Below are positions 1 through 57,197 of a stretch of DNA of 64,000 nt, one piece after another. This DNA is from Chrysomallon squamiferum (lineage: Eukaryota > Animalia > Mollusca): contig CM022672.1 in NCBI GenBank assembly GCA_012295275.1, positions 24,118,001 through 24,182,000 of the forward strand, written 5' to 3'. Numbering within the stretch: position 1 is the first letter of the stretch; each line of letters opens with the position of its first letter. The notes beneath the pieces were generated by a model. The model did no database searches and had not been told where the DNA came from. It saw only the letters and a list, made by a program, of their open reading frames with translations. The position numbers and the translations under genes are program-made.

Positions 1-121
1 TTTATATATTTTTTTAAAATCAACAAATAAAAAAGAACACAAAAAAAACAGTGAAATGTTTATAAACATTTTAAAATTCCCTTCTATTTACATTACAGGT
101 GTTGTATATAAATAAAACAAA

Positions 122-752
122 ATGGACAAGCAGTATTCAGTGCAGTTTTTTTCTGCATTTGTGGAATCAATACAAAGACTCTGCCGTGAATACTTAGAGT
201 TTGATCAAGTTGTTGAAATAGGTGGATACCTATCAGTGGAGATAGACAACTTCAGAAAAGAAAGATATGTTCTCAGTGAGATGTTACAATGTTCAGGAAA
301 TCTAATTAGTGAAAGTTACTGCACAAAGGCCTTCAAGACACACAGATGCTGTACTACAAAAAATGCTTTGCAAGAAAGACATTCGAATGTGTCTGGTTGT
401 GACTTTCATACAAATAAAGGCAAAGACCAAATTACAAATAAACATAAAAGATCTTATGAACCAAGTCGATTACAGACGTCAGAACTGGAAGAATATGGAA
501 GGATGGATCTAGAAGATACAATATCGAGTGCAGACAGAAAATCTTGTATTGGTCCAAGCGAAGAGGACAATAATTTAAAAGATGAAACCAATTCAAATAA
601 CTGTCGTAATCAAAAAACATTATATACAGAACAGCCATGGACTAGAGGTGCTAATTCCAACAACATTAATAATGGTCAGTTATCCTCAGAAATAAGGAGG
701 ACAAAGCGTCTTTTATCGGTTTCTAATTCTAGCTCAGTGCCAAGTAAGAAAG
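122..752 (+). CDS. Shared coding exon 1 of a multi-isoform HTH transcription-factor-like gene: ordered ~70-aa N-terminal domain plus low-complexity linker
   Basis: Acceptor ttacAG at 97-98 precedes the ATG at 122. The ORF begins MDKQYSVQFFSAFVESIQRLCREYLEFDQVVEIGGYLSVEIDNFRKERYVLSEML. Phase-1 donor G|GTAATT at 753 (alternative phase-1 donor GTAAGA at 744) fits the acceptor at 1382-1383. Confidence 0.8.
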
Positions 753-1383
753 GTAATTCTAAAAATGTTTATAATATTTCATTACTAATATATGTAAAAT
801 GTACTAAATGTCCTCAGAATGTATTTCAAATATAATTTTTGGTGGATAATAAAGGAATTGTTGTTTTGTCAGATAGGTCTTTGTATATTTGTACAGAGTT
901 GTATCTTAAGATGTTTTCACTAAGCACTATAAAGAAAAATTTAAAAAGAAAAAAATATAATGATAAGCAGATATTAATACAGAATTTTTTTATGGTTAGC
1001 ATTGGTTCTGAATTATCAAAGTGAAGAATTAAAATATAAGTATTTTTGTAATCATTATTGTTGGAATTAGATTAAATATTAGTAGTGCACCCTAATTTTC
1101 TGTAAAATGTATGGATTGTTGAATTTGTTCTCTAAAAGTTTTGTATGGGAACAGTGTATTATAGTTTATACTCATAAGTTTATCCAGAGGTAACTGCAAT
1201 ATTGTAAATTACAAAGCCAAAATTAACCCTAGTTGCCAGCTTGATGGAAGCAGATGTCACTTTAAAAGAAAGACTTGAGTTAATGTGTCATTTTCATTTC
1301 AAGTTTAAATATATTTTTCTAAACAGTTAAAAACTAAATATTTTTATTTATGTAATAATATTATTATTATTATTTTTTTATAG

Positions 1384-1751
1384 AGAAACAGCAGCATGAA
1401 GAATCACCAGTTTCCTCATCTCAGCAGAATAATTCTTTTATGAATTCCAATGAGTCCTTAAGAATTAACCAGTCAAATACAGATGTGTCAAGAAATCTGC
1501 TTTCCCAGGCAAGTCATACCACAGAGGAGAATATTCGACTTCCACTAAATACTGTAGTTAAAGATGAACCAGATAATTCTGATTGCATGGTGGTGGGCAG
1601 TAGCGAAGAAGATAGCAGTTTACTGGACTCCAGTGATGCTTCTTTTTCCTTAGACCATTTACAAAGCAATCAAGAAAGAGCTAATACCAGTGACAGTCAG
1701 CCAGTGTTGCATTCAGATGGAGAAACGTATCAAGCAACAGACAGATCAAAG
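1384..1751 (+). CDS. Shared coding exon 2 (Ser/acidic linker with VKDEP SUMO-consensus motif), ending in a phase-0 donor
   Basis: Polypyrimidine tract plus TAG at 1381-1383, phase-1 compatible. Open frame ...TVVKDEPDNSDCMVVG...QATDRSK, then AAG|GTAGGA at 1752. Confidence 0.8.
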
Positions 1752-3994
1752 GTAGGACACTGTTTTTAAAGTAGGGAAACTTTTACCTAACAGGAATGAA
1801 AGTCTTTTTTGTTTTGCTTCTTTTTGTTTGTTTTTTCCTAATTAATAATATTTTTGTAATTATTATTGTTTTGTTTGGATTTTTTTTTTTAAACTAATTT
1901 TCCTTTTTTCTGTTGCTATTTTTTTTCTTTTCGTTTCTTTTTTTCACACTGGACATTCAGTTTTATGTGTATATTTTATATTATCTATATTTACATCTAT
2001 ATTTTCTTAAATACAGTATAATATAAATATTAATGTGGTCATGACTTCATTTAATTTTTAAACTTTTACCCCAGTCAATTTTTCCATTCAGTGAAAAAAC
2101 AAAATAGAAATGAGAAAAATTCATATATTTTTACTGGTTGATATTTCTATATTTTGTTTTTCTCAAGTGCTCTACACATTAATTTTTTCACTTGTTATTC
2201 CTTTCAAAATATTTATATGTATATGTCTATATTTGCACTGCTTTACACATTTAATAACTTAAACATACATTTAAGCCATTACAAACTTAATAATGTAACC
2301 TTGAATAATACAGGCTTCAAATTTACTATCTTCTCTAGGGCATGGGTATACTCAGAAATGTTAAAGCATTAAGGAAGTTTAATTTTTTTTATCAAGTTTT
2401 ATTAGAAGTCATAGACATTGCCACTGTTCTTAACTATAATATGGCCAATAACTTAACGAAACCAGATTTATTTGAATCACTTGCACCTAAAAAAGAAAAA
2501 GGAAAAAGTTCAGCTGAGCACATTTAGCAGCCATTTAGCTAACATTTTGTAATTTTTGTTTCTTATTTAGCAAAGATAATAAAAATACCTAGTTAACATA
2601 ATATTAATCTCATTCCAAGAAGTATTACATGTTGCTGTCTTGAAAAATACAAAGAAATATGTGTTTTCATATTATTATTTGACTTTGGTTATTGAATCAA
2701 TGGCATTTATGGGAAAGGGCATGAAGGCAAACCAGGTAGAGTAGCTACATGGTTTTATTGCCTTGGAGATTGTAATGCCCTTAGGCAAGTAAGGAGGGCA
2801 CTTACTATCAGTGCCATGGTAATATTCAAAACCTGATAATATTTACTAATTGGTAATATAATGTATGGGTTGTTCTCAGAAAAAAAGTTAATGATGGTTT
2901 TTCTCATTTCTGCTCATAATTTTCTGCAAATTATTTTTATTGTATATTTCATTTTTTAAGTTTTGAGATATGATACTGATAAAAACCAGATAAAGAATAA
3001 ACAAAATTATTGATTTATCTGATTTTCTTCCTTTTTATACCAACAAATTATCCTTTAATACTGTGTGAAGAAGATGGCTTGAGATAAATAGCCCACATGT
3101 ATAAATATGTAGATAGATAGATAGATAGATTATGTTTTCCATATGGTTGTTTAATAAAATAATTTCTCATATTGGTCGTTACACTTTGCATCCATTTCAG
3201 TCAAAATAATAAGATTGTCTCTGGCAAACAAGAACTTTTGTTGGGACCTTCTTGTCAGTGTGAAAGTAATAAATAACAGAGTACATGCCCTGTTTTAGTT
3301 TGTAGTATGTCAGTTTAATTTTTTAGATCAAGCATTGAACTGAAGATTCATCAAAAATGTATTTTTAAAATCTGTACAACTGACATTAAATTGTGACTAA
3401 TATCTTAAATGTATTCATTTATGCATACACGTACAAATGAGATAAAGGATTTGCAGGAACTTTCCATTTTTTATGGATACATTTTTTCCATTGGTGTCTT
3501 TGGAAAGTGGATGTGTAATGACCGTATGTGATATTCCATCATTCAGAGGTAAGATTATCATTCTGAATTATTTTCTGTTATATATTCTTGAATAATATTC
3601 TAATTACTTAATATATGATGTAAATTATCTTTAATTTAAAAACATTTGTATCAAAAGGTTAATATTTTTCATAATGGAATTGAATTAATGTTAAGGTTTT
3701 TATTTCATTACTGAAAGTAGTTGTGATAAAATTAAATGCTAATAATCAGTGGTTTCTTGATTCATTATATGTTGTTGTTTTTTTGTTGTTTGTTTTTTTT
3801 GTTTTGTTAATGGTTTTTTTTTTTTTTTTTTATCTGAAAGCAGAAAGATCTATAGTAAATATTAATTATAGCGTAGAGGGGAAAGGAAAACTACTTTTGT
3901 TTTATTGTATTTCATCTGTAACATCTGCATATCTTGTTTGTTTTTTTCAATGAATTACAGGCTATATTTTTCCTTCTTTTTTTTTTGAATTCAG

Positions 3995-4321
3995 TTTATA
4001 GATACACTTTGCAAAATGGTTGAAAGAAGAGCAGCATTCATCAGACTTAGTTCCACCATTATTATCTTTCCCTTCTTCATGTCCATCATCTTTACTGAAA
4101 AAAATAAGAAGACAACTGCAGAAAGAATGCAAATATGGAGACAGAAAATGAAAATATATTATCCTGAATGATATAAAGCATATTTGTATAAAAACAAACA
4201 AAAATGTAAGAAATATCGGGCAGAGATGTCACAAGAGCAGAGAGAAAAACAGAGGATTCAAAGAAATATAAGAAGAAATTCAAAGTTTACAGCCAGGCAA
4301 TATATCGGAAGTCTGCTCTGA
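3995..4321 (+). pseudogene. Candidate degenerate alternative terminal exon A (basic alpha-helical segment interrupted by TGA)
   Basis: Poly-T tract plus ttcAG at 3993-3994, phase 0. Reads ...KNKKTTAERMQIWRQKMKIYYPE*YKAYLYKNKQKCKKYRAEMSQEQREKQRIQRNIRR, with TGA at 4169-4171. The downstream flank resembles the flank after exon C. Confidence 0.45.
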
Positions 4322-4654
4322 CCAAAATAAAAAGAGGACAGCTATAAGAGAAAAATAATGGAAATAAAAAGAAAGGATCAAGAAATGAACACCTCAAAGA
4401 ACTGTTCCATACTGATGAACAAATGCTCAGTAGACATTTAAAGCACTATTTCAAAGAAGCATAATGTCTATCCATGACTCTGGTACAGTGATAGCTTTAG
4501 TGGCTGATATCTTTCTTTAAAAGCTACATTTGACCAAAACTGAGTTGGGGAAAAAAGAGTAGTAGTTCCTGAAACCAAGAAAAAGAAAATGGTTCGTTTC
4601 AAATATAGACAAGACAACTGCTTGGTGTAAATAAATGTTCCAAAGCTGAAGCAC

Positions 4655-4820
4655 TGTTATAAAAAGAAGTAGATAACATGTTCTTGACTTCTGAGTTAGA
4701 AAATACATATAATGAGTAGAGGTCTTCAGTGTGAAGAGATCAAGTAACTACTTAGTGCAAGTTTTGGACTCCATAGTGAAAAATATCTGATTCCTACCTT
4801 AAAAGAAATTAGAATATTGA
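4655..4820 (+). repeat. Direct repeat homologous to ~7490-7770 (sequence downstream of exon C)
   Basis: Shared gttataaaaagaagtagataacatgttcttgac...aaaatacatataatga...gaagagatcaa...ttagtgcaa...tccatagtgaaaaata...ccttaaaagaaattagaatat. Confidence 0.8.
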
Positions 4821-5108
4821 TTCCTTAACTAAAAGATTTTATTTTTTACCATTATCCCACATTTGAAAGTTCAAGCTGAACCATCATATCTCAGAACAAC
4901 TCATCATTTTTATTATTACTATTGTTGTTGTTGTTGTTGTTGTTGTTTAAAATACTTCTTAATAATTTATTTATTTATTTTTTATTTATTTTTGTAACAG
5001 AAACAAAACTTAAGCAATAATGTTTTATCCAAGAAAAAAAGAAAGAAATAACAAACAGGTATCAACCTTGTTTTCTTATACTGTATTAGCTCTGTATTTT
5101 GTTTTCAG

Positions 5109-5543
5109 CTGTCAGCCAATACTGGAGTCCAATCATCATTTTCTTTACCCATGTCAAGAAGGAATTACACAAAGAATAGTTTGGATTTTGCAATAAAAGC
5201 AGTTTGTAAGAATGGCCTAACAATTGAACAAGCTAGTAAAACATTTAACATTCCAAAGACAACTCTGAGAAGAAAAGTACCCATTGTATCTCAACATCGG
5301 GGTACTTCGTTTCTCACAGACAAAGAAGAAAATGATTTAGTGAATTTCATAGTGGAAAATGTGAAGAAAACTGGTACACTGATGAAAAAGTCTGACATTA
5401 TCACATGTGTGAAAGACATATTACAAATCAGACCTTACCAGTCAGAGTTTAAAAACAGTGTACCTGGATATGACTGGTATGTTTATTTTTTGAAAAGGCA
5501 TCCAGAATTAGCAAATAATTATATTAAGATATCCAAATCATAG
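5109..5543 (+). CDS. Alternative terminal exon B: pipsqueak-type HTH plus CENP-B-type HTH
   Basis: Acceptor ttttcAG at 5107-5108, phase 0, in frame with ORF 5151-5543. psq-like RNYTKNSLDFAIKAVCKNGLTIEQASKTFNIPKTTLRRKV, then CENP-B-like LTDKEENDLVNFI...PGYDWYVYFLKRHPEL. Own stop codon. Confidence 0.85.
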   Translation: MSANTGVQSSFSLPMSRRNYTKNSLDFAIKAVCKNGLTIEQASKTFNIPKTTLRRKVPIVSQHRGTSFLTDKEENDLVNFIVENVKKTGTLMKKSDIITCVKDILQIRPYQSEFKNSVPGYDWYVYFLKRHPELANNYIKISKS

Positions 5544-6283
5544 TGCAGATTTATAAACATTTAAATTTGCATATTATATTTGTGGTAACATACAATGAAA
5601 ACAACTTTCAAATAATATGTATTTATACAAATGTAATTAAAAATGTGAAAATATTTATTCATGACAAATCCTTGTAAATTTAGCAGTATATGGAAATGCT
5701 TAAGAAATCATTTTGTAATAAATCATTAAATTTTTTATTATAACTGTTGTTGCTGTTGTTGTTCATTAATTGATGAATATCCATCTATTTGATACTAGTG
5801 CACATGGCCATGTATATTTTTGTTTCAATAATAATTATTTTACTGATATTACTATATGCAGAGAGCATTCTAATTCCTTTCCATGATGCCATTCCATCTG
5901 GAGTTTTTCCTATTATTATTATTATTAATTCTAAAATCATGTTTATTTTATCATTTATTTCTAAAATAGTATATAGGATATAAATAATGCATTAAAAACA
6001 ATTAAGGAAATTGTTAGATAACAACAGTTTAATGGTCACTATAAGAAAGTGATGACTTTTTATAAATATTTGAATTTAATTATATAAGACATATAATCAG
6101 CCTCTTTTTGCATTCAGATTTCTCCGATTCATTTATTTTCCATGATCTGAGGTAAAATTCCAAACAGTGCTGCAGTTCTTAACAAAATCAGTAACAAGTA
6201 GATAATATACATATATATGCATATAAACTATATTTTGTGGTATATACTGATTTTTGAATGGATTTTTGTTCTTGATTTACTTA

Positions 6284-6331
<48 letters not shown>

Positions 6332-7070
6332 GTAACAAAACTTGCATACCATAACGTTCAGCATATACTGCTGTAACAAAAGGAACTAAATCTATAAGAA
6401 GCTCCTTAACTTAGCATAATTTCAGATAACAGAGTACTTTTAGTGATACCTGGATATCAAGACAGTTTTTGAAAAGTTTTTATTTAGGTACTTTAAATGT
6501 TTCGTTCTGTGTTAGTAAAAGTGACATATTTTTTTCTTTTCTGAAGCTGGCAAGATGCAGGACATACAAGAATCATACACATAGCTTGGGAAATCATTAA
6601 TTTAATTTCTTTGTTAATAGTTGATGACTGATTTGCATCTGAAATGTCTGTTTCTTACATAAACACAAGTAATGACATAACCTCATTAAATTAACTTTTA
6701 AGAAATAGTTTTTGATAGAATAAACATTGGATTTCATTGTCTTGCAACAAATTAAAACAAAAATCTACATAATGATTCTCCATACCTTTATTCCTCCAAA
6801 CTTAAGCATCTAGAAATGTGATACAAACATATAATTTTCTTCCTAAATGTATACTCACTTGTGCAGAATTATTTTATTTTTTTTTTTTTTTTTTCCATCC
6901 CAAGTCATTACTATTTCATAATTATAGTTATTTTGTTTTAAGTGAATTCACCTAAGGAAAAGGACTTGTTATTATATATTATTATTATTATTATCGTTAT
7001 TGTTTATTTTCTAATGAAAAGTATAACAATATCAGTTATAAAAAAGAATGTGAAACTTTCTATATTTCAG

Positions 7071-7487
7071 TATGGACCTGTATCAACAATAAGGAAAAGA
7101 AAGTTTTACAAGTCTTACCACATGGATACACTAAAACTGGCTATACAGGCTGTGTGTGAGAGAAAGATGAGTATACCAGAAGCAAGTAAAATATTTAACA
7201 TACCAAAGGGAACATTAAGAGACAAACTACCACTTATAGGAAAGACAAGGGGGAAAACGGCACTTACTGCAGCTGAAGAAAGTCTTCTTGCAGATTATAT
7301 CATTGAAAGAGGAAACAGAGGAGAAGTTGTGTCTAAAGTTGACCTGATAAGACAAGTCAGTTCTATTCTCAGTGGGACAGGCCGGGAAAGTCCCTTGGCA
7401 ATTAATCGTCCAATCTATGGCTGGCTTACAGCGTTTCTGAAGAGAAATCCCAATGTCCCTGACTGTTATGTGAAAAGATCTAGATAG
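7071..7487 (+). CDS. Alternative terminal exon C: pipsqueak-type HTH plus CENP-B-type HTH
   Basis: Acceptor atttcAG at 7069-7070, phase 0. YKSYHMDTLKLAIQAVCERKMSIPEASKIFNIPKGTLRDKL...LTAAEESLLADYI...PIYGWLTAFLKRNPNV. Own stop codon. Confidence 0.85.
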   Translation, partial: YGPVSTIRKRKFYKSYHMDTLKLAIQAVCERKMSIPEASKIFNIPKGTLRDKLPLIGKTRGKTALTAAEESLLADYIIERGNRGEVVSKVDLIRQVSSILSGTGRESPLAINRPIYGWLTAFLKRNPNVPDCYVKRSR

Positions 7488-9606
7488 CATAGTTATAAAA
7501 AGAAGTAGATAACATGTTCTTGACACATCTTTGAAAAGAATTAGATAATAATTATGTTCCTGATTCCTGTAAAAAAAGATCAGGAGAGCAAATTTTTTGT
7601 TTCTTTGTGAAAAGAATTAGATAACGTGTTCTTGACTTCTGAGTCAAAAAATACATATAATGACTAGAGGACTTCAAGCTGAAGAGATCAAAGAACTAGT
7701 TAGTGCAAATTTTGGAGTCCATAGTGAAAAATAACTATGTTACTGATTCATACCTTAAAAGAAATTAGAATATGTATTTTTTATACTTCATTTTTTTTTG
7801 ACAATGTTTTGAAAGAAATAACAAATTTAATTTGCTCTTGAGTTCTCAGTGAAATGAACTAGCTGATATATGATTTTCTTGTGTTCTCTGTGAATAGAAC
7901 TGCATAATTTGTAATGTTTTTCACTATATTATGAAAAAAATAATTATATACTTACCTCCTGCTTTATGAAAAAAAAAATCATATTATTGCCTCCTGCTTC
8001 ATGAAAACTAAATAGCATTTGCCTGTGAACATTTTATATAAAAACAAAAAGCTTATAAAATTGTTGATTATTATGTGAAAAAAAAGAAGTAGCTGAGTAT
8101 TTTATTCTCTCCGATAATTACAGAAATATTTGTTTATGCAGGAAGTGCCACATTGTTGTCAAAATAACAAAAAAGAAAATGTCTGAATCACTGTTACTGG
8201 CATAAATCATTAATATGAAATATTCCATAATTATTTATCATGAATAAAAAAATTACAGGAAATACTGCAAATTAAAAATTGCTATGGATTGTTGTTGTTT
8301 TTTGTTTTTTGGTGGGGTTTTGGAGGGTTTTTTTTTGCTTTTTTTTTTTTTTGTTTGTTACTGACTTCTTTCTTTTTTCTTTTAATTTTTAATTTTTTTT
8401 TGTTTTTTTTTTTCTCTTACAAGTCAGATAATAATATAAAATTAAATTACATAAAAATTAGTGACCTATTAAAATTCTAATCTACTTTGGTATATTTCTA
8501 CTTTGATATGCCACCTGTTTCAATTTTGTTTAATATATTGAAGTAATAAATATATTTTGTAACATTTCACTATCATTCTATTTCTGTGTTTATGTTGTTA
8601 CATTAATATTTTTTCTTTTGTCTGTTAAATTGTTTTCATGTGTTTTTTTTATTTATTTATTTATTTATTTATACAAATTTTTTCTTACTTTTTTTTCATA
8701 ACATTAACAAATATGTTATAGTTTTGTAATTTATCACTCACCTAACGTGTATTTTGTCAAAGGATCCATTCTCTTTATTACAACAATTAGGTTATTTTAC
8801 CATTCATGACACTTCACTAAAAAATCGCAAAACTTACGTTTTTCTGAACAGACAAAGATGTATTTGAAAGATACTTATGAATAAATACAATAAAAAAGTT
8901 ATTTTTTCTTATTATAACTGTTAAAAAAATGTGGTACCTAATAACAGTTAATAAAATTATAGTGTCCTCAGGCATTGATTTACAGACCTCAGTGGTAAGA
9001 TATTCTTCAACAATGTCATCAAAATGTAAAGCCCAATATGTTGCATGTGCAAAACATATCACTAACACATACACAACACAAACACAGAATATAAGCTAAA
9101 CACAAAATTTACCATTTTCAATTTACTGTTGTAGTTCTTTAATGGTCAGGTTTTAGACAAAGACTTGATTACTTTCACACCAAATTTACTGATTTCAGTT
9201 TACTTTTGTAGTTCTTCTGTAGTCATTTTTTTGGACAAAGACTTGTTTATTTTTAAATAACTCAGTTTCAAAATGGATTTTATATTGATCTTGTATGTAA
9301 TCAAAAGTATAAATGTCAAGTACATTTTGTTCCATTCCAGTGATTTTTTCTCTTTTTTAAAAAAAAAAAAAGTTAAAAAAAAAAGTATATATATTAAGAG
9401 AGAAAAAACAAATATTTTATATAGATAAGCCATTCTTAATTCTATAAACTATAAACTGAAACTGGTGCTCACATATAGTTTAAATTGATATTTTCAAAAA
9501 AACACCCCAAAAACAAAAACCCAAAACCCAAAAGTAAAACCAGACAGTGAAGAACAACTACACATTTGTATAAATTTATATCATCTTTCAATATTTCTTC
9601 TTTCAG

Positions 9607-9789
9607 TTTTATAACCTGGTGCATTTAACTTCTGGACGACCAAGTTTTTACAAAGGTTACAGTCAACATGATTTAGAGCAAGCTATCCAGGCTGTGAGAG
9701 ACAAACGGATGACTTTCAAAGAAGCAAGGATAAAATATGGAATTCCACAAAGAACTTTATTGAGAAAGGTGAAAACTGCTGGTATATGA
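9607..9789 (+). CDS. Alternative terminal exon D: single pipsqueak-type HTH (absent from the ORF track)
   Basis: Acceptor tctttcAG at 9605-9606, phase 0. FYNLVHLTSGRPSFYKGYSQHDLEQAIQAVRDKRMTFKEARIKYGIPQRTLLRKVKTAGI*. AATAAA at 9822-9827. Confidence 0.8.
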   Translation, partial: FYNLVHLTSGRPSFYKGYSQHDLEQAIQAVRDKRMTFKEARIKYGIPQRTLLRKVKTAGI

Positions 9790-10789
9790 CAACATAAAAC
9801 ATCTTTTTGTAAACTACACCAAATAAAATGCACAACCCAAGATAATAAAAAAAAACCTCTTAAAAGTGAACACAATTTAAATGACATTAAACTTTAAAGT
9901 ATTAATAGTTTTCAGTGTCGGAAGTATTTGTGCAGAAATTCCTGATAAAAACAAACAACTGTAACGACTTGACTAATAGAACAACAAGATTAGCAAAGAG
10001 CACATTGTTTTGTGTTTTAATTTATAAATGTGGCTTTAATAAAATCATAATGGGTATTTTATTTATATGTATTTATTCCCATGTTTTGTTTCGTGTTTTA
10101 GTTGTTAATATTTGAATCAGAATTTGGCTTGGACTTTATTGGTTACTATTTATATTCCAAATCATTATTATTTATTAAGACTAAAAGTAAAAAACTGAAC
10201 GAAAATATTTTCAGAAATAATTGGTATTTTACTGTAACTTAAGTTATATTATATTTAGATAGAAGATTTAATCTACTCAAGTATCAATAGAATAAAATTA
10301 AACGTAAAATTGCAGTATAAACTAATACCAGGCCATGATGGTTTGTTTCTGATCCATAAGGCCAAATCAAATGATTTTAGTGAAAAGCAAAAAATCATTA
10401 ATGGTCGACAGATTTTGATAATATTTTGCACACTTAAGTTAAATACATGTAATACATGAAATATTTGTTTTGGAAGTTAAATATATCCACACATTAAGAA
10501 AAAAAAGGACTGTGCATTTTTTAACGTATATTTCATCAGAAAATAAAAAATATTTAGAACAGGAAAAGGAAACATTCAATAGAGAAGCAGTAGACAAATA
10601 AATTATGTATACTAAGTCACTAAAAAGATTTTTATTCTGGATATTTAATAAGCAGACAAATCGGTTATGACTAGTACAGATAATAATAATGACAACAATA
10701 AATAACTAAACATTGTCATCATCATCAAATTAAGATTTACATAACATTTGTTATCAAAACGATTTTTGAAATGTTTCTTTTATTCAACC

Positions 10790-11332
10790 TGAGAATTTAT
10801 TGTAGCCATATTGGTTGCATTCAAATCCAAACATGTGATTCCAACACATCTAAAAGAAAATAAATGACTGTCATAAAGTATACACAATTTAAAACAAAAA
10901 ACAAAAAAAAACAATTAAAAAAAAAATTAAATTGCTGCATATTAGGATTATTCATATTTCCTAACTCCAATGACATTGTTTGAAATGTAATATTCATGTT
11001 AAAAGAAGTAAATAAAAAATAATTTTAGCAAACAGAAAATACCAAATAATAGTAGTATTTTTAGTTCTTGTAGTACTAGTAGGTCTAGTGATGCTGCTAT
11101 TAAAATTAGTAGTTGTAATATTGTAGTAGCAGCAGTAAAAGTAGTAAAAATTCATTACCTGCAGAAGTTGGAAAGACCATCTCAGTTTTTGTCATCCATG
11201 AAGAAAGTACCATTGTATCCCGGATCTGTTCCCAATCTGCCGCCTGAGGGCAGATTGTAATTGTATTCACTCTCACCTTGAGTTCCTGCCAGAGCGCACG
11301 ACAACCATTTTACCTTACCACTACCAACAAAT
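10790..11332 (-). pseudogene. Relic of secreted-protein gene A (exon 2 intact at 11159-11332, exon 3 internally deleted, coding exon 1 missing)
   Basis: 11159-11332 is nearly identical to 26231-26404. 10800-10850 matches fragments of 25825-25907 with deletions. Confidence 0.85.
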
Positions 11333-11939
11333 CTGAAAATTACATAGACCTAAAGATAGATAAATACACAGGAAGCGCACCCAACACATAGTTTAATATT
11401 TTTGTTTCTTAAATATTTCAATGCATAGATAAATATACAGGAAATGCACACAGACACATAGCTTAATAATTGTATCTGTTAAGTATAGAGCAAGTACATT
11501 TTTCAGATGATTAAAACCTTTAGTTTATTTCTATCAAATTTGTTTAAGTCTGTATTTCTATCTTTATGTTTGTAAAGCACTGTAAATAATTAAAAAAAAA
11601 AAAAAAAAAAAAAAGGATTTGGAATCTAGGAAAGTAAAAAAATATTTTTTGTATAGTTCTGCTTTGATTTCATCTGATTTAGAAGACTAAAACTATACAA
11701 AAGTAATTCACTGCACTATTTCATAAAATATGTTTTGCAAAGTGAAAATAAATGTAAATTTCTAGTATCAGCAGATTTCACTGAAATGTTTGTTACAACT
11801 GGAATAGTACTGAATACAGCAGTCTGAGAAGAAATATTAATATAGATATGTGTAAACATGGTTTGACATTTATGCGTGAAACATATACACACTCCGACAG
11901 ACAGAGAGAGACAGTTTCAGGAATACAATTAATACAAAT

Positions 11940-12240
11940 GTCAACTACCTAAACATGAAGCTTTGTATTGACTTATTATGTTTCAATAAAACCACTGCTG
12001 TGTAGAGAAGGTAACAGCCATCAGATCCAGCCACAGCCAGCCAGCATACACGTAATCCATGTGTGCTTTTTTTATGTCCATACAAGAAATTGCTATAATT
12101 ATTTAGATCATTAACAACGAGTATTAAAATAAAGGAAATAATAATAAGAACAATAACAATAATAATAATCAACCTATCAGACTGTACAGATGCAGAAATA
12201 AAATCAAAGAAGGTTTATGTAAATCAGTTTGATATATATA
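11940..12240 (-). pseudogene. Relic of secreted-protein gene C (deleted exon 3 joined to the 5'UTR-exon/promoter region)
   Basis: 11940-12085 matches ~45840-46030 with an internal deletion. 12170-12240 matches ~47710-47780. Coding exons 1-2 are absent. Confidence 0.75.
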
Positions 12241-14129
12241 TATATATACCATTGTTATTACTCCTATATATATTCTGCTACTAAAAATGATGACACAGTT
12301 GCATTTAATCACAATATTATATCCTATTATTAGTCTCTTTTATTCATTAAATATTTAATTACCATACCTATAATGACACACAATTAAAAACTACAGAAAC
12401 TTTTTACATACCGGTTTACAGAAATCATTTGTGGATGTAATACTGTGCAATTAAACTATGAGCTTATGGAGAAACATATTTCCATGTTTCAGTCTGATTT
12501 TTTTTTTCTTTTTTTTTTCATTCAGCACATGCAGTGGAATACATTATATAGCTGTATTTTTTCTTCAAATAAACTAGTTATTATTTTTAAATTCATATAT
12601 AAATTATTTTCCCATTCAGTATGGCATAGGATTAACCAACGCATAAACTGACTGGGTAACGTAAGCATTGTTTCAGTAATAATAACATATCTTGCATGCT
12701 GTTAGATGTTAACACAGGTTGACAAATTGTAAATAGAATTTAAAGTAAATGAATAAAAAGTAACTATTTTAAATAAATATTATCTGGTAAGAGATCTCTC
12801 ATTTTCCACACACTCTGTATTAAAGGTGAGCACGTTGGTGCATTGTGTACATTTACTTGCAGATAAATTAAAGCATGTTTTCAATATCTCAAAATACTTT
12901 ATTTTAGAACATCTTTTTTTTTTAAATAAATTTTTCTACTGAATGTATGTTTGTGTAGTTCTATATGCATTATAATCTGTAAGTGTGTGTTAGTGTGTGA
13001 GTGGAAACTACTTTTAATATTTTATTACAAACATTTGATCAATTACTCAGTTTTATGATGGAAGATTTATCAATTTCTTGTTAATAATTTCTGTTGCTTG
13101 TCAGTGTTCATCCAGATAATTATACTGTTATAAAAGCAATAGATAATAAATAAAAATACTTATGAAAACTAGGATGGGTAAAAGTGAACAAACAAAGCAG
13201 TTAATACTAATCTACATTTTTTATTATTCAGAAAGGTAATTTAAAATTAAAACAATGGCATAATTAATAATTAAAAATATATATATCTATTATGATTATT
13301 ATTATTGTGTAAGTTGTGGGAATATATATAATCAGGAATTATGTAAAATAATTAAATTTACAGGTGTTAATAATTATGTGTATTGTCTGATTGTCCAAGT
13401 TAATATGTACAATCCCCGAAAAATTTCAGATATTATAAATAATATATGAAAATTAGTTAATTATTTTTTACATATTTCTGAAATGGATACATCTATTATT
13501 ATATCATTGTTATTACATTTTCCCATCCTATCAATAACAATATAATAAATCTTCATTCCTTTTTAAATAGATCGGTTTTAAATAAAGACTAGGCAATTGA
13601 TTTAAGCTATATGCAAATGTTTCAAAATATTCGGGATTAAACATAATTCCTGAGTTAATCAGACATTACATACATTACCTAAAAGGTCCAAGCTATACTC
13701 TGTAAAATATGTATCAAACAAAATATTTACTAATGATTCCTTATTCCTCACAACAACATAAAACAAATTAAATAATAATTCAATAATACCATTTTTTTTT
13801 TTATATATCAAACTAAACAATTAAAAGTAATGTATGTTGAAAACCAAAATTCAGCATATTTATTTTTGTTGTTTATATTGTACAGTAAATTATTTATGAG
13901 ACATTTGTTACTGTTTATAGGTACACTACAGTATATTTATGTCAGTTGATTGGTGAAAATATGGTGTCTGGAATGTATTATATATGTTATCTACATTAAT
14001 TTCTTCATTTTGCTATTCATTGTCACTAAGGACCCCAATTATATACATGATCAAATGCACCAACCATTAAAAGGCATATGCATAAATTTCAGTCACATTG
14101 TCATGCTTAATATACAAACAAGCTTTTAA

Positions 14130-14305: not shown

Positions 14306-15429
14306 AAACCTCTTGTTACATGCAGCAACCTTAAGTCATAGTTTACAACATAACTATACATTTGTATTTTCATCAATATACAGGAAAATATGATTTCATA
14401 TTCCTTCATTTTTGGTAAAATTATAAATATGCTGTGGAAATTTTGCATAAGAATTCTGTCTAAATCTAAATCTGAGAAAATATAATAAAATGAAAAACAA
14501 ACATACTTAAGTTTTTACTGAATGACAACATTATATATAAAATTTACCAATCATAATGTTTCTTGTTTTAATAATAAGCATTTAAAAATAATAATATAGA
14601 TCCAAATTTGAAACCAAATACTTATATATATATATATATATTAAAACCACACAGTATTATTTTAGAACAAAAACCAAAAAGAAACGAAGATAATATGTTT
14701 AAAAAAAAAAAAGACTGAGAAATGTCAACAGTTAGATGATGTTTTATACTGCTTATTCAGTAAAGCTTAATACACATTAGAAAAGAAATTTTTATCTAAA
14801 ACATGCACAAATTGTATCCAAAATATGCATAATTTGAATTTTATGTAGTAGTAATTATGTAAAATCTAATTAACCATATCACTTCTATGTTGATTTATGA
14901 CTACTTTAATTAAATGACACTAAGAAAACAGGCTATAATTGGAGGCAGCTTAAAATAACAGTGAAGGATCGACAGCTATATTAATTATTTACACATATCA
15001 GTCACAATTTAAATCTTACACACCAATGAATTTTGTCAAAATCTAATATTTTATAAAATAAGGGTTTTAAAAATTAAACCATTTTTATTAAAATATAATT
15101 ACAGATTTATTTTGAATGAATCTGATGATTCAACCTATTGACAAACACACCTATATCCTCCAGTGCCTAGTAAACTTGAAATGATTAAGCTTTATTGAAC
15201 AATTAACTCAAAATATAATTATTCATTTTTATATAATTCTTAACAAGAAATAAAATATAAACTTTTTTTGTGAAACCAAATATTTTACATTACTAAAGGA
15301 ATAAAATTTCAACAAAGCTTTGGAAAATTTTTGGTCTCTTTAACTCACTGTATATTTAATTTAGTACTTATTACTATTATTTCTGACTTCATCTAACTGC
15401 AATAATTATAATAAAATATAAAAGTTTAC

Positions 15430-17690
15430 AATACAAAATCTACTAACTAGTATATATAAATATTAATATTAAAATCACACAGTTAAGTATTATTTTATAG
15501 CAAAAATATACTACACTAATTTTCTCATCTTCATTTTCCCAAGTTTACAATGTCAATCTATACATTTGTATTTTCATCAATATAGAGGAAAATATGATTT
15601 CATTTGGCTTTATTTTTTGTCAAATTATAATTATGCTGGGGAAATTTTACCCAGTATATCCTGGAATTCTATCTAAATATAATGAAATGAGAAACAAACA
15701 TACCTAACGTTTTACTGAATGATAACATTATATATAAAATTTACCAATCATAATGTTTCTTGTTTCATAACATTTAAAAACTACAATAAAAAAATAATAA
15801 AAATAACAAAACAACTAAAGGTCTAAATTTTAAATAAATAATATCTAATTTTTTTTTGGTGAAACCAAATAATTTATATTCCTAAAAGAATAAAAAATTC
15901 AAGAAATCTTGTTAATTTCATTATAATGATTTAAAAACAAAAACAAAAACAAAAACATTTTTTCACTTGTCAGTTGTTGGTCACTTTAACTCACTATATA
16001 TCTCATCTAGTACTATCATTTATTATTTGTCACTTCACCTAACTGCTTACATCTGCAATAATTATTATAAAATATAAAACTTCATAATACAAAGTCTATT
16101 AATATATTAATATTAAAATCACACAGCTAAGTATTATTTTATAACAAAAAAAGAAGAAACTAACATAATACGTATTAAAAGAAAAACACCCATAAATGTT
16201 ACGAATTAAATGAAAAGTTATATATTCTATTATCTTTATACACATTAGAAAAGAAACTTATATCCAAAATATGCATAATTTGCATTTTATGTAGTAGGAA
16301 TTATGTAAAATTTAATTAACCATATCACTAAATTAAATTATTTAAGATACATTTACTACTGTCTGTAAGTACACAACAGTATGTTTATGTAAGTTAATTA
16401 ATGAAAATATAGTGTGTCTGGAATGTATTAAGTACATTAGCTACATTAATTTCTTCACTTCATTATTCAGTGTCACTGAAGAACCCCATGTAGATAAATA
16501 TTCAAATGCAACAACCATTATACACAAATACAAAACTGATAGGCATATGCATAGATAAAAGAATTTTAAAAAACCCCAAATTGATCAAAACTATTTCAAG
16601 GCAGGAAGCAAAAGTTTCAGCCATATTGTCAAGCTTAATGTGCAAACAATCTTTCAATCAGATTTTGTCATCTTCAATTATCCTGCACAGATCTGGTCAT
16701 CTTGATTTATCGGAAACAGAATTTGTCAAGTTCAATTACTATATAGATTTTCTCATTTTATAATACAAAGTCTACTAACTAGTATATATAAATATTAATA
16801 TTAAAATCACACAGTTAAGTATTATTTTATGGCAAAAATATACTACACTAATTTTCTGATCTTCATTTTCCCCAAGACAAATCTCTTGAATAATAGTTTA
16901 CAATGTCACTATACATTTGTATTTTCATCAATATACAGGAAAATATTATTTCATTTGGCTTCATTTTTGGTCAAATTATAATTATGCTGGGGAAATGTTA
17001 CCCAGTATATCCTGGAATTCTATCTAAATATAATGAAATGATAAACAAATATACCTAACTTTTTACTGAATGATAATATTATATATAAAATTTACCAATA
17101 ATAATGTTTCTTGTTTCATAACATTTAAAAACTACAATAAAAAAAAAATAACAAAAGTAACAAAACAACTAAAGGTCTAAATTTTAAATAACAAAAATCA
17201 AATTCTTTTTGGTGAAACCAAATAATTTATATTACTAAAAGAATAAAAAATTCAAGAAATCTTGTTAATTTCATTATAATGATTTAAAAAACAAAAACAA
17301 AAACAAAAAACAAAACATTTTTTCACTTGTCAGTTGTTGGTCACTTTAACTCACTATATATCTCATCTAGTACTATCATTTATTATTTGTCACTTCACCT
17401 AACTGCTTACATCTGCAATAATTATTATAAAATATTAAACTTCATAATACAAAGTCTATTAATATATTAATATTAAAATAACACAGTTAAGTATAATTTT
17501 ATAACAAAAAAAGAAGAAACTAACATAATACGTATTAAAAGAAAAACACCCATAAATGTTACGAATTAAATGAAAAGTTATATATTCTATTATCTTTATA
17601 CACATTAGAAAAGAAACTTATATCCATAATATGCATAATATGCATTTTATGTAGTAGGAATTATGTAAAATCTAATTAACCATATCACTT
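15430..17690. repeat. Local ~0.9-kb direct duplication (15430-16330 versus 16760-17690)
   Basis: Both copies begin atacaaa.tctactaactagtatatataaatattaatattaaaatcacacag and end aattaaccatatcact, with near-identical interiors. Confidence 0.85.
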
Positions 17691-17976
17691 CTATGTTGAA
17701 TTATCATTACTTTAATTAAATGACATTAAGAAAACAGGCTATCCCTGCAGGCAGCTAAAAATAACAGCAGAGGATAGACAACTCTGTCGTCAACAACCTA
17801 TGATGTGGTACTATATTAGTTTATATATCATAAATGTTTATAAGTATAAAAGTCGTATTCCAAACAAAATGATGTAGTTACAAAAATACAGAAAAGAAGT
17901 TAGAATATGTAAATATTAGAAAAATAGCATGATGTTCTGCTTAAAAATTCACATTTTTCATTATTCACTGAACTGA

Positions 17977-20900
17977 TTAGCTGGTGATACCCTTAGCTAC
18001 CAGTTCTTCTTTTACATGTTTTAAATAACCTGATAAGGATTACGGTCCAGAGATTCAGAACGACGATGAAAAGATCCAGAACGACGATGGAAAGATCCAG
18101 AACGACGATGGAAAGATACAGGTGATGAACTGCTGGGACCATTTGAACTCTTGTTTGCTGACATAAGATCTGTTTGGATCACTGGCTTGTTTCCACCAAT
18201 CTGCTCACCATTGTTAACTCTACCTGTATCTACTCGAGTCATAGAGGATGAGCGCCTGGCAGAAGGTTTTTTTTCATACTCTCTAGACTTTCTGTCAGAA
18301 TAAAAATTATTTATAAATAAATATATAAATCTAGAAACACAGCATATCAACAAATAAAGCAGAAGAAATTATAACATTGTAAAGTAGATTTCTTAACAAT
18401 AATATGCTTATGAATTAAAACAATCATCTGAATTTAATTACAAACTTATTTTTATTTAAGTCTAAGCTATTTCAAACCTTATTTTATAGGTAAGATTAAT
18501 GTAATTTTATTAAAATATACATTAAAGAGTATAGCTTGTGGGGTTTGTGCCACTGACACCTAATTTGGGTGATAATTTTCTGTAAAGACGAATGAGCCAA
18601 AAATTAAAACAACAATATTAATAACAGATTTTTAGTGGCAGTTATTATTATTATTATTTATTTTTTTAATTTTAATTTAATTTTTTATTATTATTATTTT
18701 TTTTACTCTAGGCAAGATATATTATAAAAATATCTGTGCTGTTTTGATATTTAATGGCTGAAAGAAATCTGAACAGTTGTATGAGAACTAATAGTGGACT
18801 ATTCCCTGTAAAACACAGATACATTTAAATGTTCTTGGTCACTGAAGAGAGCCTTCAGAAAGATGAATAGCAACATTTTCTAACATGTATCAGAATTATC
18901 CAGTGATCTTGAATCATGCATATCAATTCATGATCTGAATCATGATACTAAACCATGGTTCCCTGCTGTGTGAATGAAAAAATTTTTTAAATTGTCAATA
19001 ATAAGTCCTATTTAAACACTTCAATTCTAGTAATTGCAAAAGCAGTTCATACTTTTTTTACTTATATAAATATAATATTTCCTGATCTATGCAAGAAAAA
19101 ATAATTTTTTGTTTTAAATTGTCAACAATAATTTGAGTAAGTCCTATTTATTTACCTCCTTGATACTGAAGTTTGCAATTTCTGTGAATTATATTTCTTC
19201 TTCAATGCTTCTTGAAGAAGTTTTTCAAATGTTTTATCCAAGCATTGCTTAATCATGACAATTGCCAAACAAACAATTTCTGGATCATCGTTCACAAACA
19301 GTATTTTCCTCAAAAAGCTTGAATTTTCGTTTTCTGATATAAACAACACAACAGCATCCAGAAAAGCTTCCACACAATATTCTATAGGAATGTCAGATAT
19401 CCCTAAAAAATATAAATCCCAGCACAGCAGTTAATATTTTAGAATAAAGATTATTTAATGACATTATCAATTTTTAAAAGGATTTTTGTTGCATTTTAAC
19501 ATAAAACTGATTTTTCTTTGGACATTTACCAAACAAATAATTTATCTAAAAATAAAATTTAAATGTGAAGTGAAAAAAAAAAAAAAAAAAAACCCAGCTA
19601 AATAAATAAATTAATAACAGTATTACAATTATATAAAAAAATAATATAACCATTATTTTTTCCATTATTACGTTTCAAATAACCAATATTCTAACTGACA
19701 AAATAAAGTTAATAATTATACACATACCTGTGCTGATAAAAGGAAATGCCATTGATTTGACCATCACTATTTCATTTCCATACTTGAGACAATTATAAAA
19801 TGTTTTAGTCAGGGTCTGAATGCACTGTTCCCAACTTTCCTTTATGTATATGGGTCCAACTGTATGTAGGACACATTTTAAATGCTGTAACTTCCCATAT
19901 GCTTTGGTGTGCATTACTTCAGTCACAGGAAGTTCTCCATATTTCTTTATGTATTCTGCACATTCTTTCTTTATTTCAGGCCCTGCAGCTTTCTCAACAG
20001 ATTTTGCAACTCCAGACCGGTTCAGCAATTCACTGTTAACAGTATTAACAATGCAGTCAACCTTGACTTTGACGATGTCATTACAAGAAACTTCAATTTC
20101 CAAACCATTATCAAATTTGTAATGAAATTTTGTTAAATCTGTTGAATGTTGTGGTAGCTTTGAGTTTTGTAATGATGTCATATTTTCATTAACCTCAGAG
20201 TGTCTTAGAGATTTTCTAGTGTAACTGTCATCAACATATTGGCTCTGTAGTCTTCTATCAATATAATTTTTTTCAACAGTCTGTGCTCTGCCACTGTTAG
20301 TGAGAAAACTGTTTTTCTGGTAGGTCAGTGAATCTGAGTTATCATTACATTTTAAGAATGCAAAGTGTTCAAATGTTTGATCAGCATCTTTAGAACGAGA
20401 TTTCCTTGTAGAAATTTTTCTGTTGCTTGTAGCCTGTGACAGATATGAACTTTCTCTGTATGACAAACTGGACATGGCATCATGGAAGAACCTCTGGTTT
20501 CCAGATTGTGTATCATGCCTGCTATTATATCTTTCACAATCATCTAAAGAATCCTTATCCGAATATCCCGATTTTCCTAAAATTCTTTTAGCATCTAAAC
20601 CTGCTACTTCATCATCATTTACATCTCTTAATCTTTCAGTGCATTCTCAGCACCTAGAGCACTCCTGTAATAGTGTGAATCCTGGGGAGAGTTTCTACTT
20701 ATTTTCTTTGAAGAAGAGTAATTACTGCCACTGCCTCTATCCAAATCTTTCAGTGCATTCTCAGTATCCCTTCTTGAACTCTGTCTGGTCTCTGCAATTT
20801 GAGAAGAAGAGTAATTACTGCCACTGCCTCTATCCAAATCTTTCAGTGCATTCTCAGTATCCCTTCTTGAACTCTGTCTGGTCTCTGCAATTTGAGAAGA

Positions 20901-22290
20901 AGAGTAATTACTGCCACTGCCTCTATCCAAATCTTTCAGTGCACTCTCAGTATCCCTTCTTGAACTCTGTCTGGCCTCTGTAGTTTGATGAACCGAAGGA
21001 TTTGGGGACTTTGATGTCAGACCAGTTGACTCATTTACTAACCTTGATTCTTGATCCTGTCTTCTAGTTAAATAACTGATTTCTCCTGAACCCACACCAT
21101 TAACCAATTCGACTCCAGAAGGAATGTTCATTTGTTTTACAAGATTTTCTTGTATATGATACTGACGATCAAGGATCCCATGCAGATAGTTCCAAGCCCA
21201 TTCCAACTCAAACCAGTTTCCTTTGAATCCCACTCCATTAGATTTTGTTGTAAATATTTTTATACCATTTTTTAGAAGAACATCTTTATATTCATCTGTG
21301 GCCAAAACAAGAGAGGCAACTTCTTCTTCTAATAAAATTGATATTGTGCTATATATCTGAAAGTAAATAAAAGAAAGATATCTTTGATTAAAACTGATTG
21401 TAAACTAATTATTTTAAGATATTTTATCTGAAATAAAAGTTGTTTAATTAATCGTCTATGTTTTTTTTCAAGATAAATCAGTCTGATTGCATGTTTTAAA
21501 AAAAAATAATTACTGATGAAATAATCATTTATAAACAATTAATTTTAATTATAACAGAAATGAGCTAAAAAAATAAATAAAAATAAAATAACAAATAATT
21601 CATAACACTATTAACAGGCTATCTTCAGTCATCTTTAAAATCAAAAGAAATACAGTTTTATAAATTCCCAATCTCTGTAGGAATAGAAAATGAATATAGA
21701 TATTTATGAAAACAATTTATCCATGTTTTACTTACTTTTTTTATACAAACAATTAGCAAAATATCAGTATTCAGAAAGTCTAAATTCATGAAACAAAGAA
21801 ATATGGTTTTAAACATTACCTGATGAGGCAAAGGTTTCACCTGAAACCTGGTAGTCCCACTAGATATCTCTGATTTACTCAAGACCTTTGCTACTTCTGT
21901 AAAATGTAGGAGAAGTTTTTTCAAAATACATTAATTTGTTGTGTAAGGGAAGACAACTGTTGTTGTAATTGGTATTAATTTTATTATTATTTATTTATAT
22001 TTTAAAAAATATTTTTCAATACAATGATTTTGTGAAAAAGATATTAATGTTTATTGTTATATGAAGGATAACATAATGAATGTTATATGAATTTACAAAC
22101 TGTAAAAACAAAACTCCTATTTATTTGCTTTTATACAAACCATATGAATTTTTAAAATTATGACAGCATCATTATTTAACAATGGATAGTAGATCTTGTC
22201 AATTTTGTTGTCAGTGGCAGAATCAAACTGTGATTTCAGTAACTGCACACTCATCCTTGGTGGGATATTGAATACACGAACGCCTAACAT
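17977..22290 (-). pseudogene. Macrodomain-Deltex paralog, left copy (pseudogene; RING and most of DTC deleted). Exons 22290-22141, 21896-21820, 21356-19728, 19402-19156, 18291-~17977
   Basis: Collinear with the right copy. Exon 1 is 150 nt versus 151 in the other copies. Frameshift/stop at ~20630. The linker exon is fused out of frame at ~18035 to the last DTC exon. Macro motifs are altered (NTVN, GISD). Confidence 0.85.
20700..20985 (-). repeat. 93-bp (31-aa) coding tandem repeat, 3 units
   Basis: Three units of the ETRQSSRRDTENALKDLDRGSGSNYSSSQIA type in ORF 20628-21305. Confidence 0.9.
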
Positions 22291-46248: not shown

Positions 46249-46956
46249 GACATAAAATTATTGTATATGTCATTGTTCTAGCTGTTTTAACATAAACATG
46301 TTTAAATGACAGAAATAAAGATCATGTACCTGCAATAATCTGCACGCCCGTCTCCATTGTGATCCCTCATGTACCAGGTGCTGTTGTATCCTATATCCAT
46401 AGGCTCTTTACCCCCGGCAGGTGGGTTGTAATTGTATTCGCTTTCTCCCTGGGTACCGGCTAGAGCGCAAGAGAGCCAAACGTATTTTGATTTCAGAAGT
46501 GGACCAACAAACCTGAACATTATTTTAATAATAATATTATTTATACACTTGTGAATTTGTACAGAAGTATTTAATACTGAAATTCTAACAGAAAATGTTT
46601 GCCTAACTCATGGGTTCCCAACCTTTTATCTGCCTTCAACTTACAAAGATTTTTATGATCCTGCCGCCCCTCCCCCGACTGCTATAGAACTGGACGAGCT
46701 TATTAGGCTACAGCGCATATAGAACCTGGAGTAGACCAATATGGTCATATTCATTCAAATATTTCATAAGAATAACATTTTGTTTAATAATTTACTTATT
46801 AAGTCTTCTACGGCTGGTTATCTTGGCAATCGACATTAATGAGGTCAGAAAAACTTGCTATTAATACATCATTTTCAAATTGCACCTGCATATAGCTTGT
46901 AGAACAAAAATGTAATTTATTTCCTTATTTTATTTTATTTTATTTATTTATTTATT

Positions 46957-51036: not shown

Positions 51037-57197
<6,161 letters not shown>

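Follow-up and report, generated by a model that had tools for sequence, protein, structure and literature searches.

Two insect genes, lola and mod(mdg4), are the closest described counterparts of the locus analysed here: each combines an invariant N-terminal domain and linker with one out of 20 to 30 alternative 3′ exons that encode different C-terminal domains (PMC11426971, PMC13490949). Both belong to the TTK-type BTB genes, whose BTB domain carries an FxLRWN motif, and no TTK-BTB motif is reported in Mollusca (PMC11426971). The tails of mod(mdg4) are transcribed from independent promoters (PMC13490949). The constant-head, many-tails design itself is already known from these arthropod TTK-BTB genes. 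KIAA1958, a Crypton-derived DUF3504 gene, likewise has alternative exons within one gene that encode different transposon-derived C-terminal domains (PMC3212892, which states that this splicing lacked experimental confirmation). It differs from the mollusc genes described below in having two tails of one fold and in being found in vertebrates (PMC3212892), and resembles them in its DUF3504, to which many of the mollusc family heads are also fused. KRAB-transposase fusions, as presented in one preprint (bioRxiv 10.1101/2020.05.07.082677), splice a transposase DNA-binding domain onto a host regulatory domain; these are tetrapod genes with mostly KRAB heads, whereas the snail locus has several tails behind one front, and neither KRAB nor another known host domain was found in 23 heads of the snail family.

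The window, a 64,000-nucleotide stretch of the Chrysomallon squamiferum genome, contains a locus that resembles lola and mod(mdg4) in that constant 5′ exons precede a series of 3′ DNA-binding exons, which are probably mutually exclusive (Table 1). Array sizes in mollusc gene models (labels up to X20–X25) are comparable with those given for the insect genes. Unlike the insect genes, the snail gene has a head that is not BTB by sequence, the mollusc design occurs at at least 12 loci on one chromosome record of the gastropod Gigantopelta aegis, and tails of the C2H2, psq, BEN and CENP-B types occur side by side within single mollusc loci. It is likely that molluscs evolved the lola/mod(mdg4) way of obtaining many regulators per gene on an unrelated scaffold; an earlier note on this DNA had proposed such a convergent system, and both the gastropod isoform sets and the non-BTB head support it.

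Table 1. Features of the locus (positions within the window)
Feature	Position	Strand	Remark
5′ untranslated part, first coding exon	99..121	+	TTACAG precedes 99
N-terminal head domain, unnamed, ~75 aa	122..346	+	predicted helix, then four strands
Shared coding exon 1	122..752	+	head domain and low-complexity linker
Shared coding exon 2	1384..1751	+	S/D/E-rich linker with the family's RLP..KxE motif
Candidate terminal exon of the earlier note	2339..2527	+	62 codons; unsupported
Stop-interrupted terminal exon	3995..4321	+	basic helical tail; in-frame stop 4169-4171
~170-nt direct repeat, copy 1	4657..4827	+	behind exon 3995
Terminal exon A	5109..5543	+	psq HTH and weak CENP-B-type HTH, 144 aa
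Terminal exon B	7071..7487	+	psq HTH and CENP-B-type HTH, 138 aa; RNA-confirmed isoform
~170-nt direct repeat, copy 2	7605-7783		behind exon B; copies 85-88% identical
Stretch spliced to exon C	8845..8994	+	GTAAGA donor at 8995; one RNA contig
Terminal exon C	9607..9789	+	single psq HTH, 60 aa

The two shared exons together encode 333 codons without a stop and end at a phase-0 donor (GTAGGA, at 1752), an arrangement given in the earlier note and reproduced by translation and site inspection. An alternative acceptor for exon 2 at 1386 was discarded because it disrupts the reading frame. Exon 2 is 60% identical over 62 aa to G. aegis P0001, and its RLP..KxE motif recurs in 64 of the 100 family proteins tested. 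RNA contigs begin at 97–99 in all four runs, one of them with 32 additional letters before 97; together with the acceptor at 99, this makes a further exon before the start of the window likely.

Downstream, a pyrimidine-rich CAG precedes each of the three exons A, B and C, whose phase-0 open frames (144, 138 and 60 codons) bring the predicted isoforms to 477, 471 and 393 aa, respectively, in agreement with the approximate sizes estimated earlier. That each encodes a psq domain behind a phase-0 acceptor and ends in its own stop, as had been claimed, was borne out by the open frames and by Pfam HTH_psq scores of 30.2, 33.6 and 32.7 bits against a curated cut-off of 20.4. Exon A (psq, E = 4e-7) also has a weak HTH_Tnp_Tc5 match (E = 0.07); exon B (psq, E = 3e-8) has a CENP-B-type HTH_Tnp_Tc5 match that stays under the cut-off (E = 8e-4), and its psq part resembles the HTH of human LCoR (PDB 2cob, E = 0.0017); in exon C, psq is the only Pfam match. 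A psq HTH in each tail is what the locus shares with Pipsqueak/LCoR-type proteins (PF05225; PDB 2cob), from which it differs in carrying these motifs in separate terminal exons rather than serially in one protein.

Chance is a poor account of this array. Among 87 stop-free frames of at least 45 aa on both strands of region 1752–13000, psq was found in three, exactly exons A, B and C. Of positions drawn at random on the plus strand, 6.6% have an open acceptor-like site in frame in the 150 nt before them; for three psq exons this corresponds to a chance of ~3e-4. Protein identity among the three is 36–41%; exons A and B share 39% over 126 aa while their DNA can be aligned over only 52 nt, and this, together with intact frames, points to long selection on both. 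The eight letter differences listed within A, B and C (five silent, no stops, no indel listed) are weak evidence. Exon A is also 40% identical to the tail of isoform X5 of G. aegis LOC121383439, which is of the psq plus CENP-B type, as are exons A and B.

The constant front (75-residue head and long low-complexity linker) is joined to the psq last exon at 7071, and we consider it probable that those at 5109 and 9607 are mutually exclusive alternatives to it and that the gene supplies several regulators. The donor at 1752 would choose among acceptors, in a manner coupled to a poly(A) site behind each tail. By analogy with BTB, ZAD and KRAB, the head may mediate self-association or cofactor binding, and the isoforms are predicted to share one protein-interaction head while reading different DNA sites. 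New tails would be gained through tandem duplication and through the capture of transposase-type DNA-binding exons, and would be lost again.

RNA evidence came from contigs (not reads) of four runs of one study; a DNA-like run, X5, served for comparison. The 752>1384 join was present in all four. Five junctions from the donor at 1752 had been put forward in the earlier note, one of which stood: 1751>7071, a GT..AG join, was found in three of the four RNA runs and was absent from DNA-like run X5, while the contig of the remaining run ends at 1751, as expected at a branch point. The other four (1751>5109, 1751>9607, 1751>3995 and 1751>2339) were each found in none of the four, which is weak evidence, since contigs lose rare variants. 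Contigs over exon A start in the upstream intron in two of the four runs and RNA contigs cover introns as well (17 to 29 of 30 bins); the coverage of exon A is therefore not evidence that it is spliced.

With 1751>7071 the only front-to-tail join seen, the locus might make one protein only (front plus exon B), with A, C and 3995 as unused or decaying remains of an ancestral array and the family design realised elsewhere. The stop already present in exon 3995 and the single isoform retrieved for the likely G. aegis orthologue would fit. However, A and C have kept their frames, above-cut-off psq domains and in-frame acceptors despite the 36–41% identity among the three tails, the acceptor at 9607 is used in RNA, and the loss of rare variants from contigs leaves the missing joins with little weight. 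We therefore regard a single product as unlikely, and several isoforms are likely made at the locus.

The join that uses the acceptor at 9607 comes from 8994, the only observed route into exon C (none from 1751). It was found in a single contig, in one of the four runs and not in DNA-like run X5, whose DNA shares four letter differences of this contig; the contig extends to 10568, just beyond an AATAAA at 10542, and exon C can be read in frame from an ATG at 8929. This join, unlinked to exon 2, raises the alternative that A and C are transcribed apart, as stand-alone psq proteins from internal promoters, by read-through of the exon B 3′ UTR or as trans-spliced transcripts, and mod(mdg4) tails with promoters of their own (PMC13490949) provide a precedent. 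But the contig has no defined 5′ end, all three tails follow the donor on its own strand and in its phase, so that cis-splicing suffices, and no opposite-strand tail occurs among the 87 frames. We rate separate transcription as improbable; since mod(mdg4) tails have such promoters (PMC13490949), tails with promoters of their own, listed in the earlier note as a refuting outcome, would in any case be compatible with a mod(mdg4)-like design. A 9-nt microexon at 8986–8994 was considered but is not claimed, its would-be acceptor having a letter difference at 8983 in run X5. Loose contig ends at 569 (three of the four RNA runs) were not taken as a close paralogue, as they may be a short chance match, and joints with sides of 20–31 letters (e.g. 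2113>9497) were set aside as A/T-rich chance matches.

The pairing of psq and CENP-B HTHs, which we take to be the DNA-binding part of Tc5/pogo-type transposases, could instead mean that pogo/Tigger-type DNA transposons left the psq exons behind as intronic debris and that one such remnant was turned into a last exon. Untranscribed debris of this kind, flanked by TIRs, had been named in the earlier note among the outcomes that would refute its reading. A bipartite region as in pogo/Tigger (Tc5) is indeed present in exon B and, weakly, in exon A. Against this origin, the psq exons each stop directly after the HTH, and no DDE or other transposase catalytic family was detected at E ≤ 0.01 in the 87 frames, all of 45 aa or longer. 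None of the 25 longest of 154 inverted repeats, mostly A/T runs, forms a clean pair around one psq exon. Three intact, co-oriented exons in one phase would be rare by chance, and in G. aegis the tail with 40% identity is attached to a head of the family. The debris account is largely refuted and appears very improbable.

The evidence from the wider family is stronger than that at the locus, and the family is far larger than is visible from the window alone. The relatives are gastropods, which places the system in a non-insect animal, as had been suggested. Their RefSeq models (Gigantopelta, Physella, Biomphalaria and Haliotis) form isoform sets that split at one residue into predicted C2H2, psq, CENP-B-type HTH, BEN or basic tails; these sets are RefSeq/UniRef predictions, i.e. 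predicted gene models. A total of 103 of the 218 fetched proteins fall into 17 sets with a common front, and in the 10 sets of at least three members, all 488 of 488 pairs diverge within two residues of one point. The largest G. aegis sets have 19, 13, 8 and 8 retrieved members, with 16 in Biomphalaria glabrata and 9 and 6 in Physella acuta. Tail types are mixed in 7 of the 17 sets, and for 3 of these 7 Pfam supports at least two folds (C2H2 and psq; BEN, psq and C2H2; C2H2 and HTH_Tnp_Tc5). Isoform sets in four mollusc species and the anatomy of the locus thus agree with the proposed array of mutually exclusive DNA-binding last exons.

The likely G. aegis orthologue (tree support 98/94) has a C2H2 tail in place of psq, indicating that tails turn over; a search for further isoforms of it returned only itself, and tblastn found no C2H2 exon resembling its tail in the window. 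RefSeq names isoforms of one locus 'ZBTB17-like', 'myoneurin-like', 'CTCFL-like' and so on, and such scattered labels hide the family and affect gene counting. We found no description of this gene family in the literature, and 274 pattern matches to related loci in metagenome contigs yielded none that was confirmed.

The head has no match in Pfam, and fold searches found no clear counterpart among solved structures. It is 86% identical to G. aegis XP_041368530 over a 93-aa head query, and its AlphaFold2 model (mean pLDDT 86) comprises H4-24, E30-41, E45-56, E61-63 and E66-72. Exon 1 had no Pfam match at E ≤ 1; among 23 family heads, none matched BTB or any relevant Pfam family at this threshold, including KRAB, SCAN, zf-AD and SRF-TF, in keeping with the proposal of a non-BTB N-terminal domain. 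The FxLRWN motif is absent from the front translation, and a head profile run against PDB sequences returned no BTB chain at E ≤ 10. Foldseek with the head model gave no match at E ≤ 0.001, and VIA-align a best Z of 4.9, with no BTB among the 50 matches listed. In the ESM Atlas, the window head had one match at 0.75 of low recognition, which was not usable, and the Biomphalaria head no usable match. Homodimer prediction scored 0.02, with the alignment unused and the fold uncertain, and counts neither for nor against self-association. A likeness of the helix and hairpin to the MADS box, noted by eye, was dropped, given the lack of an SRF-TF match and its absence from the listed fold matches.

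More tentatively, and with somewhat less than even confidence, the head may represent a so far undescribed counterpart of BTB, KRAB and ZAD that extends across molluscs, perhaps across lophotrochozoans, and its genes may be docking platforms that gain, and between orthologues swap, unrelated DNA-binding last exons. These would include C2H2, psq, CENP-B-type HTH, BEN, Crypton-derived DUF3504 and basic helices, many of them derived from transposases. If so, about a dozen clustered genes would supply well over 100 regulators as a fast-turning repertoire, which could be directed at mobile elements or serve to set up chromatin boundaries, and mod(mdg4)-like trans-splicing would be possible. Apart from this conjecture, the occurrence of the design on an unrelated, unnamed domain across gastropods is a likely case of convergent gene architecture, and the head is a candidate for the effector module still missing in many mollusc zinc-finger proteins. 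Among the relatives, those of Biomphalaria, Physella and Lymnaea come from laboratory snails, which opens isoform use, the partners of the head and the DNA targets to direct testing.

Several further exons were considered. The candidate at 2339 has no Pfam match, no likeness to family proteins or tails and no junction; that at 10102 lacks both a domain and family similarity; and an alternative acceptor at 4002 opens 49 codons with no Pfam match. When exon 3995 is translated with X at its stop, its alignment to the G. aegis LOC121382774 X8 tail runs through the stop (score 66, reached by 0 of 500 shuffles), and the differences listed for RNA contigs over it include no change at the stop; we infer that this exon is decaying. 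The ~170-nt direct repeat behind exons 3995 and B is possibly a trace of cassette duplication.

The window is animal DNA, rich in AT, and its head-domain gene consists of a constant front (exons 1 and 2), with 333 open codons up to a phase-0 donor, followed by three in-phase DNA-binding terminal exons, A, B and C, so that the exon anatomy read in the earlier note is correct. Each of the three matched HTH_psq (Pfam) above cut-off, with an additional CENP-B-type HTH in exon B and a weak one in exon A, and a scan of 1752-13000, both strands, gave no psq match in the rest of its 87 stop-free frames (≥45 aa). Of random positions, 6.6% have an acceptor-like site, open and in frame, within 150 nt (~3e-4 for three), and poly(A)-like hexamers lie downstream of every tail's stop.

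Features of the head-domain gene and of the Macro-domain genes in the window (terminal exons by first base)
Feature	Position	Strand	Description
Exon 1	122-752	+	shared coding
Exon 2	1384-1751	+	shared coding, then GTAGGA donor, phase 0
Exon A	5109		pyrimidine-rich CAG acceptor, phase 0, 144 codons, own stop
Exon B	7071		pyrimidine-rich CAG acceptor, phase 0, 138 codons, own stop
Exon C	9607		pyrimidine-rich CAG acceptor, phase 0, 60 codons, own stop
Macro-domain gene, at least 3 tandem copies	18021-21404, 39126-40652, 52320-56368	minus
RING + Deltex C-terminal exon	52320-52802	minus

Five public runs cover the stretch, all as contigs: four RNA runs from a single study, and a fifth, run X5, of unrecorded kind. 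Exon 1 was spliced to exon 2 in all four RNA runs (contig pieces with two unplaced letters between 752 and 1386, matching the requirement of acceptor 1384), and the front was spliced to exon B (1751>7071, GT..AG) in three, the contig of the remaining run stopping at 1751. These joins are splices, because run X5 behaves as DNA, unbroken through the introns and without any of the joins. The proposed junction 1751>7071 was thus recovered, whereas 1751>5109, 1751>9607, 1751>3995 and 1751>2339 (the last two leading to further candidate terminal exons) were absent from all runs among the contig pieces listed, a weak absence since contig assemblies lose rare variants. RNA cover of exon A proves nothing, because introns were covered too (17 to 29 of 30 bins) and the contigs across exon A began inside the upstream intron in two of the four runs. 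One contig (1/4 RNA runs) splices 8994 onto 9607 and reaches 10568, slightly beyond AATAAA at 10542; this shows that acceptor 9607 is functional and gives no link from the front to exon C. Its upstream piece was assigned to the locus because run X5 shares four of its letter differences. The segment 8845-8994, joined to 9607 in RNA only via an intronic donor, could reflect B-isoform read-through, a splicing intermediate, or an internal promoter from which a psq-only protein of 82 aa would be made.

Use of exon B alone would match the single tail junction recovered, and we consider it unlikely: exons A and B share 39% of residues across 126 aa (with a DNA alignment only 52 nt long) and exon C is 36-41% identical to both, and all three remain intact despite this high divergence, which argues for function. 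Among the letter differences listed, eight fell in these exons, five silent and none a stop, which is weak evidence. Separate transcription or trans-splicing of exons A and C, to which the 8994>9607 contig could also be fitted, seems improbable beside three acceptors in phase with the front donor. That the psq exons are transposon debris, as their CENP-B-type HTHs might suggest, is scarcely credible, with a transposase catalytic domain in none of the 87 frames. Several isoforms are probably used at this locus. With its stop read as X, exon 3995 aligns through that codon with the basic helical tail of Gigantopelta aegis (gastropod) LOC121382774 X8, at a score reached by 0/500 shuffles, and is a putative fourth tail, of a different type, in decay. 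Exon 2339 gained no support as a terminal exon (no domain in the frame scan, no likeness to family proteins).

Among 218 fetched proteins, 103 sorted into 17 sets with a common N-terminal 284-432 residues: twelve from G. aegis, which all lie on one record (91,665,651 bases), two each from Physella acuta and Biomphalaria glabrata, and one from Haliotis rubra. Another five sets, of nearly identical proteins derived mostly from contigs, were treated as allelic variants and excluded, and one retained set (three UniRef Biomphalaria models) probably duplicates another locus. Seven sets are two-membered and so provide no test of a common break point; in the ten with at least three members, 488/488 pairs part no more than 2 residues from a single point, the signature of alternative last exons. 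Consecutive accessions and isoform labels (LOC121384041: X1, X2, X6, X14) place each checked set at a single locus. Most tails were C2H2 arrays, and tail types were mixed in 7/17 sets, with at least two Pfam-supported folds within one set in three: C2H2 and psq in G. aegis LOC121384041, BEN, psq and C2H2 in G. aegis LOC121383526, and C2H2 and HTH_Tnp_Tc5 in LOC121382984. LOC121384041 isoforms X6 and X11 (P0038, P0040) have tails of ~120-140 aa without a Pfam match at E≤0.1, an unclassified module, by eye possibly winged-helix-like. In other family members the head is joined to Crypton-derived DUF3504, and on another paralogous front, isoform X5 of G. aegis LOC121383439 has a psq + CENP-B tail with 40% identity to exons A and B. 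The likely orthologue XP_041368530 (one isoform retrieved) has exon 2 sequence in common and the same break point, but a C2H2 array, the like of which was absent from the window; close relatives thus carry different tails. The sets, all predicted gene models, share the constant-front, many-tails layout, and a family-level design of constant head and alternative tails is very likely.

The head, the first ~75 residues of the front, is 86% identical over residues 1-75 to a G. aegis protein (93-aa query), and groups with it and one ENA protein with support 98/94 in a tree of 78 columns where most other forks are unsupported. This points to a source organism that is a gastropod closely related to Gigantopelta. 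No Pfam family fitted any of 23 members, apart from two chance matches at E 0.09, and PDB sequences gave no match; by sequence the head is not a BTB, in keeping with the proposal of a non-BTB N-terminal domain. Its AlphaFold2 model, a helix and four strands, is confident (pLDDT 86, pTM 0.70); fold searches returned no clear structural match. Every named match in word-limited or single-sequence searches was a mollusc. Relatives occur in Haliotis, Pomacea, Batillaria and the bivalve Solemya, and heads 34-42% identical in Physella, Lymnaea, Biomphalaria, Bulinus, Elysia, Plakobranchus, Candidula and Bradybaena (among 120 listed of 191 matches); one search gave 69 matches among 50%-identity representatives. 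Several head genes (ENA proteins P0002, P0003, P0008, P0012, P0013, P0018, P0020, P0021) share same-size contigs (668,156 and 368,241 bases), so they are clustered in those assemblies too.

The window gene is lola/mod(mdg4)-like in its working, yet not a member. A single donor would pick among acceptors, with cleavage downstream of the chosen tail, and the head may act as an interaction module. Tails would arise through duplication (exons 3995 and B are each followed by a copy of a ~170-nt repeat) and may also derive from transposase-type exons. Earlier reports describe two alternative DUF3504 exons in KIAA1958 (PMC3212892) and transposases captured onto KRAB via splicing in tetrapods (10.1101/2020.05.07.082677). 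The words mollusc, isoform and alternative splicing are absent from the main text of a metazoan zinc-finger survey (10.1101/2022.11.29.518450), and searches of the open-access literature yielded no description of the head domain or of such mollusc arrays.

Elsewhere in the window, the minus-strand Macro-domain gene copies and the RING plus Deltex C-terminal exon at 52320-52802 give a Macro-RING-DTC architecture resembling that of PARP9/DTX3L-type immune genes. The copy at 54414-56368 has overlapping frames and may be frameshifted or mis-assembled. Minus-strand frames at 26559-26945 and 46302-46607 end in similar DYCRY motifs, had no Pfam match in the frames scanned, and may belong, as exons, to a repeated gene for a secreted protein situated between the Macro gene copies. 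Long AT-rich duplicated blocks, visible in the sequence at 15400-17700, lie between the head-domain gene locus and the Macro genes.
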